From a virus, in IMG/VR virus record IMGVR_UViG_3300046779_001269, positions 96,001 to 160,000 of that record: 64,000 nt of DNA. One strand, given 5' to 3'. Below, one piece after another: positions 47,460-47,785 of the stretch. The translations under genes and the position numbers were made by a program. Positions within the stretch are counted from its first letter, which is position 1; every line of letters starts with the position of its first letter. The notes under the pieces were generated by a model. The model made no database searches, had not been told where the DNA came from, and worked only from the letters and a program-made list of their open reading frames with translations.

Positions 47460-47785
47460 AATGGTTGGTTATTCTGTTACGAGGAAACCAACCGAAACCC
47501 TAGTCAGCGTTTAGGCTGCCAATGCGAACTTTTCATCGTTTGCGTTTACTTTAATTTAGTTTTTATATCTTCTCTGATAAGTTGTCCACTTCTATACTCT
47601 TTACCCTGTCGAAACCATGACAGGCCCATTATAAAACACACTATGTGGAATCGAACCACTGACCCTTTCACTCCGTAGAGACCGCATTAATTACGCTTAG
47701 TCGCCGACTAGTGTGCTTTATGGTGGACCTGGGGGGAGTCGAACCCCCGTCCAGAATACTTTTCAAGTTGCTTCATACAACCATA
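47460..47785 (-). ncRNA. ssrA: Circularly permuted (two-piece) tmRNA, tag ANDEKFALAA
   Basis: Acceptor piece ends GGGGGTTCGACTCCCCC-CAGGTCC-ACCA (47721). Coding piece starts GGGCCTG (47627), pairs with it and gives G3.U70. Tag ORF 47543-47511. Outer ends approximate. Confidence 0.92.
47628..47720 (-). other. tmRNA intervening segment with tRNA-like fold
   Basis: 12-bp closing stem TAAAGCACACTA/TAGTGTGTTTTA and T-arm GTGG-TTCGATT-CCAC; no canonical anticodon arm. Confidence 0.6.

Follow-up and report, generated by a model that had tools for sequence, protein, structure and literature searches.

The permuted tmRNA gene and its intervening segment

The window analysed here, a stretch of 64,000 nucleotides, belongs to a complete 176-kb T4-like virus in IMG/VR and carries on its minus strand a permuted, two-piece tmRNA gene (Rfam RF01850, 141.6 bits; RF04321, 123.3 bits), for which ARAGORN reports the tag ANDEKFALAA. 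The gene shows the parts that characterize permuted tmRNAs, namely an acceptor piece with CCA, a coding piece starting from G1 and a tag frame ending in ALAA. The acceptor piece, which is the 3' half of the tRNA-like domain (47721-47782; RF04321 model positions 1-63), ends with its CCA at 47721-47723 and has a T-arm of its own, GGTTCGACTCC, at 47735-47745. The coding piece, placed by ARAGORN and Rfam at 47453-47627, begins with G1 at 47627 and includes the tag frame and its stop codon at 47511-47543. Direct reading of the sequence gave an acceptor helix of the tmRNA, GGGCCUG x CAGGUCC, that includes G3.U70, and a sigma-70-type promoter of the precursor inside the RF01850 match (47792-47820; TTGACA at 47815-47820, a 17-nt spacer and TATAAT at 47792-47797). 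The neighbours on the same strand are a gene of the PD-(D/E)XK nuclease family upstream (47817-48470) and a cell-wall hydrolase gene (Hydrolase_2) downstream (46972-47436).

The two pieces are separated by a 93-nt intervening segment (IVS; 47628-47720, minus strand), which lies exactly between the acceptor-piece CCA and the coding-piece G1 and reads as quoted in a preliminary description of this DNA, where it was presented as a tRNA-like element. In permuted tmRNAs, RNase P generates the 5' end of the coding piece and trimming takes the acceptor piece back to its CCA, two steps that between them set the intervening segment free (PMC11915505); the IVS is absent from the mature tmRNA, and one intact tRNA-Ala within an IVS has been termed unique (Nawrocki, Petrov and Williams 2025, PMC11915505). 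Our segment resembles these spacers in its place and in its expected removal by tRNA-processing enzymes, but differs from them in that it is a conserved cassette common to tRNA arrays, is better kept than the tmRNA around it and is not a tRNA. We also found a second case of a whole tRNA in an IVS, in a cyano-type permuted tmRNA (L028; IMGVR_UViG_3300026321_000236, 6867-7095; RF01851, 99.8 bits), where all 76 nt form an intact tRNA-Asn(GTT) beginning 1 nt past the CCA.

The segment is closed by a 12-bp stem, in which UAAAGCACACUA (47709-47720) pairs with UAGUGUGUUUUA (47632-47643), and between the latter strand and the RNase P site lies UAAU (47628-47631). This agrees with the acceptor-like stem CACACTA/TAGTGTG, extendable to 12 bp, that had been described, and the three small hairpins described with it were also recovered. 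The first, next to the stem, is a mini hairpin GUC-GGC-GAC with GG in its loop (47700-47708), the second has the form GCGU-AAUUA-AUGC (47684-47696), and the third is CUC-UACG-GAG with a UNCG tetraloop (47671-47680; UUCG elsewhere). They are followed by an unpaired-looking stretch, UGAAAGGGUCA (47660-47670), that is the same in every copy examined below. Ahead of the T-arm stands the word GAAAGGG, with which the long variable arm of class II tRNAs usually ends as well. The T-arm itself, GUGG-UUCGAUU-CCAC (47645-47659), abuts the acceptor-like helix, with a single linker A (47644) leading into UAGUGUG paired with CACACUA, so that T-arm and 7-bp stem adjoin as they do in a tRNA. The canonical T-loop claimed earlier is present. 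Its word GGTTCGANTCC has two occurrences in the 64-kb window, one in the T-arm of the tmRNA itself and one in the segment, versus 0.02 expected from shuffles. The fold of the whole segment has a predicted energy of -24.8 kcal/mol (z = -2.3), and 4 of 200 shuffled sequences fold equally well.

The lack of a valid anticodon arm or CCA, also pointed out before, was confirmed. ARAGORN at default settings made no tRNA call on the segment, and the best tRNA-clan match in a low-threshold Rfam scan was tRNA-Sec, at 14.2 bits versus a cut-off of 47 (E = 1.6), the other matches being truncated tmRNA. A 'tRNA-Glu(CUC)' returned by ARAGORN at thresholds of 80% or lower was rejected as a forced cloverleaf, in which the T-stem has 4 bp, the D-stem is nearly absent and the anticodon stem is mismatched. 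Ribozyme models of Rfam gave no match on the segment at E up to 10, and a search of the phage's own genome for antisense targets of the interior returned just chance 10-12-mers and the T-loops of tRNA genes.

Conservation of the module across tmRNA genes and tRNA arrays

Exact-pattern scans of IMG/VR and JGI metagenomes, which give minimum counts and favour conservation of the words fixed in the pattern, located the module of the window in at least 18 further places, comprising 5 tmRNA IVS (L044, L059, L130, L131 and L132) and 13 tRNA-array-type flanks. Five of the array copies are from IMG/VR and were placed in tRNA arrays by ARAGORN. Three of them lie directly behind tRNA-Lys(UUU) (L123, L124 and L128), one exactly fills the 94-nt gap between two tRNA-Ser genes (L135), and one has upstream of it a tRNA-like sequence that ARAGORN did not call (L125). 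The remaining eight, from metagenomes (L373-L380), were assigned to the array type by tRNA-like CCA ends upstream. Some of the contigs with the module are 240-354 kb long.

The excised segment is better conserved than the tmRNA that carries it. Across the six tmRNA genes that hold the module, the window copy included, identity is 88-100% in the IVS, versus 68-82% in the 110 nt upstream (acceptor piece and promoter) and 52-77% in the first 230 nt of the coding piece. We then aligned 15 distinct copies of the module (alignment A1). Differences between the copies are confined to four kinds of structurally neutral site, namely pyrimidines facing G in the closing stem, base N of the UNCG tetraloop (UACG or UUCG), hairpin 2, and the T-arm linker, which reads A, G or UA; the interior is otherwise invariant. 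The second hairpin exists as two alleles, that of the window and CGU-AUUGC-ACG, both of which form a hairpin, and both alleles as well as both tetraloops were found in tmRNA and tRNA-array contexts alike. Variation of this kind is what purifying selection on an RNA, together with repeated lateral exchange, should produce, and it is not what a decaying relic would show; part of the high identity across contexts could, however, stem from recent lateral spread and not from selection.

The covariation check proposed for related segments gave a divided answer. The closing stem (helix 1 of the alignment) is 92% paired and shows wobble and compensatory changes, whereas the interior helices, T-arm included, are invariant and therefore yield no covariation of their own; the mini hairpin, for instance, is identical in all 15 copies. 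RNAalifold prefers an alternative on this alignment, with GUCGG paired to the T-loop. The tRNA-like reading of the window type therefore draws on motif and analogy, because its interior helices do not vary.

The proposal that the permuted tmRNA serves as a carrier of a second RNA has gained ground in that the segment is a discrete conserved module and that the same module stands behind ordinary tRNAs. One metagenomic copy (L373:842-949) is fused, at the T-loop, with the 3' half of a genuine tRNA (...ACCA) and has another cassette end directly upstream, which points to recombination at T-loop homology and to tandem cassettes, respectively.

A family of handle-bounded cassettes with exchanged interiors

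A first scan of permuted tmRNAs with long spacers revealed that IVS of 70-100 nt are common in phages and that nearly all of them share the closing helix of our segment, with wholly different interiors. This helix, hereafter referred to as the handle, has the core CAYAYUA x UARURUG with A-U pairs on its flanks. A scan with the handle alone found it in at least 120 IMG/VR contigs, and the handle matches listed include 51 in tmRNA spacers, 37 directly behind the CCA of ordinary tRNAs and 44 in other contexts, the last comprising chance matches and reverse-strand duplicates as well. A symmetric cassette finder, run on 3.3 Mb of fetched loci with ARAGORN gene calls, identified 88 unique oriented cassettes (abutting a tRNA 3' end or inside a tmRNA) with 54 interior types. 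The window copy is a member of this family, as it has the core helix with A-U flanks, fills the slot between CCA and G1 and runs in the orientation of its carrier. The acceptor-like stem is not particular to this element. It is the handle shared by a whole family of cassettes, the majority of which are without a T-loop.

Every cassette runs the same way as its tRNA or tmRNA carrier. Among the 88 cassettes, the two free Y-R positions of the handle core, read along the strand of the neighbouring tRNA or tmRNA, contain 71 U.G and 0 C.A combinations. An inverted repeat maintained at the DNA level would give the two equally, and the asymmetry therefore means that the handle is selected in the transcript. 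Beyond its conserved 11 bp, the stem extends with covarying pairs to 16-24 bp in arrays (median 20) and to 12-25 bp in tmRNA spacers (median 14), the window copy having 12 bp. These data also bear on the idea of a MITE-like mobile DNA element with terminal inverted repeats that targets the DNA behind tRNA genes. The inverted-repeat ends, the AT-rich flanks (TATA...TATA), the several insertion contexts and the presence or absence of cassettes between phages would all suit such an element, but the wobble asymmetry and the fixed orientation to the carrier speak for selection on RNA, the handle cassettes number just 1-3 per genome, neither a transposase nor a clear target-site duplication was seen, and the boundaries coincide with RNA processing sites (the CCA and G1). 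We consider this explanation highly improbable.

The family occurs almost only in phage sequence. In 596 Gb of prokaryote genomes it is all but missing; the handle pattern had 32 matches there, essentially at chance level, of which only 2 are cassette-like, on MAG contigs of 1.5 and 2.7 kb. At the gathering score, Rfam recognized nothing but tRNAs and tmRNAs in 10 cassette-bearing loci, with no cassette family and no ribozyme. Self-cleaving HDV-like 'theta' ribozymes sit 3' of phage tRNAs. Our literature search found no paper on IVS cassettes of phage tmRNA, and matches to the handle sequence were just unrelated primers.

The phage of the window has, outside the window, an array of 28 tRNAs at 41.7-49.8 kb of its genome (G000; locus L372), the neighbours of which are polB, a peptidase, a GNAT and the clamp loader. 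Two more cassettes with the same handle are present in this array, directly behind tRNA-Gly(UCC) and tRNA-Leu(CAA). Other spacers of the array are closed by different stems, including one after tRNA-Gln with a T-arm next to its 3' strand and one after tRNA-Glu with a 17-bp stem. Several tRNA-like genes of the array were missed by ARAGORN, e.g., an Ala(UGC)-like gene after tRNA-Pro.

Payloads are exchanged between orthologous sites. A spacer could be extracted from 142 tmRNA genes, among which 21 pairs combine flanks of at least 88% identity with unrelated interiors; in one pair (L300 and L306) the flanks are 97% and the interiors 44% identical. Similarly, two tRNA arrays (L272 and L285) have both flanking tRNAs in common (Lys and Met) but different cassettes, and the site directly behind tRNA-Lys(UUU) is a hot spot with at least 5 interior types (L272, L259, L285, L341, L380, L123, L124 and L128). 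Unrelated interiors at orthologous sites thus establish that the cassettes are exchanged. The tRNA-Lys(UUU) of the window phage is without a cassette.

The same comparison weighs against a degenerate tRNA relic trapped when the tmRNA was permuted, which the preliminary description had offered as one origin, and against a non-canonical functional tRNA. Such readings could appeal to the T-arm with its acceptor-like stem, to the GAAAGGG word shared with class II tRNAs and to the real tRNA in the IVS of L028. However, the cassette is discordant with the tmRNA phylogeny, as near-identical tmRNA genes hold unrelated interiors and the interior of the window is held by diverged tmRNAs and, in identical copies, by tRNA arrays; in addition, the segment has no anticodon arm and no significant tRNA score, and its stem is the handle of the family. 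The relic origin had to be abandoned, and we give very little credence to a tRNA of either kind.

Whether in a tRNA array or in a permuted tmRNA gene, the slot from CCA to G1 behaves in the same manner, and its occupants are tRNAs, cassettes or even a short reading frame of hydrophobic codons. The last was seen in five tmRNA spacers (L010, L017, L029, L043 and L052), which contain a Shine-Dalgarno sequence, an ATG and a hydrophobic frame of 22-24 codons (e.g., MDNEYSALVGFIVVIVVFALVLL) whose protein is kept while the DNA differs; this frame may encode a membrane mini-protein within the excised spacer. In another locus (L300:6360-6439), a cassette of the handle type, in which one word weakly resembles the T-loop, stands directly upstream of, and overlaps, the 5' end of a beta_tmRNA model match, so that cassettes also stand before tmRNA genes, beyond those inside them.

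We further examined how widely the T-arm occurs within the family. The T-loop word is present in 7 of the 54 interior types, against about 0.1 expected by chance in a simple calculation, and a dedicated scan found 18 distinct T-arm variants, in at least 10 unrelated payload types, that lie 0-3 nt before the 3' strand of the handle. The sequences of these T-stems differ and covary across cassette types, with 74% of the free positions paired versus about 37% at random. Many T-arm cassettes also have a D-loop-like A(A/G)UGG hairpin right behind the 5' strand of the handle, where the window type has only GUC-GGC-GAC; by analogy with these GG-loop hairpins, the mini hairpin of the window is a possible D-arm analogue. 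This subclass thus appears, from its sequences, to imitate the acceptor, T and D parts of a tRNA without the anticodon arm. The tRNA-likeness originally ascribed to the segment is in this respect upheld by its top-half architecture, with the T-arm stacked on the closing stem and covarying T-stems in the subclass, but not by the stem as such, which is not specific to the element. Given that most cassette types lack a T-loop, tRNA mimicry cannot be the general function of the family.

Predicted processing and possible roles of the intervening segment

We propose that the segment is probably one allele of a phage family of stem-closed small-RNA cassettes, in which an exchangeable payload is mounted on an RNA handle, and that the payload in this case mimics the top half of a tRNA and is released by tRNA processing. 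Each cassette fills the slot from the CCA of one tRNA-type RNA to the G1 of the next. In the window, the cassette would be co-transcribed with the tmRNA from the sigma-70 promoter; cleavage by RNase P at the coding-piece G1 would free its 3' side, and an endonucleolytic cut followed by trimming to the acceptor-piece CCA would free its 5' side. The predicted product is a hairpin-closed RNA of about 80-93 nt in which the handle would take the place of the acceptor stem, the T-arm would stack on the handle and the GG hairpin would occupy the place of the D-arm, thereby exposing an elbow like that of a tRNA to proteins that bind tRNAs. The conserved handle arms, located beside conserved tRNA or tmRNA ends, may in turn promote recombination of payloads between co-infecting phages. 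We found no RNase III, CCA-adding enzyme or RNA ligase 2 encoded by the phage, and no partner protein; lacking these enzymes and a Ro60-like protein, the phage would leave the processing to host enzymes.

RNase P itself may perhaps also account for the cut on the 5' side, at a distance of 12 bp from the T-loop. On the geometry we infer, the T-stem (4 bp plus A.A) and 7 bp of the handle put the expected cut before C47715, 5 nt past the CCA. The same geometry could be turned into a cis-acting explanation, in which the tRNA-like IVS draws RNase P to cut just past the acceptor-piece CCA and so solves the 3' maturation of the tmRNA, the released RNA being a by-product. Precedents of a sort are the IVS of L028, where a whole tRNA begins 1 nt past the CCA, and YrlA of M. 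smegmatis, which likewise has a 7-bp acceptor-like stem and is cleaved by RNase P (PMC4201824). Recruitment of RNase P as the purpose of the segment is nevertheless improbable in our judgement, for most IVS types of tmRNAs share the handle yet are without a T-loop, the same module resides in tRNA arrays, where such help is unneeded, and the handle helix runs on beyond 7 bp, which should hinder RNase P.

On another reading, the segment is a passive processing or insulating hairpin: the stem would fold the spacer on itself or mark cuts by host RNase III or RNase E, the payload would have no function, the T-arm would be recombination debris, and the identity between copies would reflect recent lateral spread. 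A processing hairpin of RNase III comprises near-perfect double-stranded RNA of about two helical turns (roughly 20 bp). The array handles are of this size, the fusion of a cassette and a tRNA at the T-loop in L373 shows that such recombination happens, and the interiors are hypervariable from type to type. On the other hand, the 12-bp handle of the window and the 14-bp median of the IVS are short for RNase III, which the phage does not encode. Moreover, the interior stayed invariant while the stem around it gathered U.G/C-G changes, both of its alleles are common to both contexts, the segment is better conserved than the functional tmRNA, and designs with a T-arm and a GG-hairpin recur in unrelated sequences. 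We therefore regard a merely passive hairpin as rather unlikely, and released cassettes with a payload of their own as the preferred reading. The IVS of 23S rRNA, which RNase III excises without re-ligation to leave a fragmented but functional RNA, and the inter-cistronic RNase III hairpins of phage transcripts are comparable as extended stem-loops within the precursor of a stable RNA, but our segment has a 12-bp handle, short for a canonical site, and an interior that is tRNA-like and strongly constrained in sequence.

Stem-closed RNAs of 80-130 nt with a conserved stem and a variable or tRNA-like module are also known among bacterial Y RNAs, such as YrlA/YrlB and Yrn1 (Chen et al. 2014, PMC4201824) and Yrl1/2 of Thermus phage phiLo (PMC12135203). 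Some Y RNAs are substrates of RNase P or tRNA enzymes, and some are encoded by phages (PMC4201824, PMC12135203). A partner of a Ro60/Rsr ring protein would accordingly combine stem closure, a tRNA-like module and a phage transcription unit of tRNA type, a concept that fits YrlA (PMC4201824). However, TROVE was matched neither in the complete 176-kb genome nor in the records of five more phages with cassettes, of which three are 90% complete or more, and no such gene stands beside the tRNA array. The handle sequence is unrelated to Y RNAs, the Rfam models of YrlA and Y RNA had no match at E up to 10, and our RNA ends at the acceptor-like stem, whereas YrlA, with its permuted tRNA-like domain, ends on the anticodon side (PMC4201824). 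A search for DUF2828 was uninformative, with no match in the 176-kb genome but none in any control genome either. A Y-RNA-like role has, in our view, hardly any likelihood.

Closer to the phage, species 1 and 2 of T4 (rnaC and rnaD), at the end of its tRNA cluster, are small stable RNAs of unknown function within the tRNA transcription unit of a T4-type phage, and rnaC has a canonical T-arm near its 3' end. They differ from our cassettes in that the comparison made here found no sequence similarity and no shared handle, T4 is without a tmRNA, and cassette exchange has not been described for rnaC and rnaD. The PeSL (promoter-early stem-loop) cassettes of T4-type phages, reportedly described by Arbiol et al. 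in 2010, are said to have short conserved flanks that let recombination shuffle their content. Conserved flanking elements would thus allow shuffling of what lies between them in both systems, but PeSLs flank protein genes and act in DNA and transcription as promoters or terminators, whereas the cassettes described here have a small-RNA payload and flanks that form an RNA helix.

More tentatively, and as a possibility on which we would not yet rely, aquatic T4-like and jumbo phages may keep a pool of interchangeable RNAs with one handle in the CCA-to-G1 slots of tRNA arrays and permuted tmRNAs, to be excised by host tRNA enzymes. A sizeable subclass, with the segment of the window among its members, would then consist of elbow mimics without an anticodon arm that act in trans, e.g., as decoys or sponges for tRNA-binding factors of the host or for tRNA-targeting defence nucleases. 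If this is true, the excised spacer of a tmRNA would be a second functional gene product. Until now the IVS of two-piece tmRNAs has been regarded as disposable, but in this gene it is conserved best of all parts and is common to tRNA arrays. Should the excised RNA prove stable, a hidden and exchangeable set of small RNAs would be expressed from permuted tmRNA genes as well as from the tRNA arrays of phages, both serving as platforms, and some payloads would copy the part of tRNA that is read by RNase P, the CCA-adding enzyme, modification enzymes and several defence nucleases.

Handle and payload together constitute a defined family for RNA family databases, and the cassettes explain gaps of about 100 nt that ARAGORN and Rfam leave unannotated in phage tRNA arrays. 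Among cultured phages, permuted tmRNAs were found in Stenotrophomonas phage Yut2 (L369; spacer of about 60 nt) and Xanthomonas phage BUDD (L370; about 127 nt), whose spacers close with a related helix (AGAGCACUCUU... and AACACACUUG..., respectively). The tmRNA of BUDD is annotated as hypothetical protein genes.
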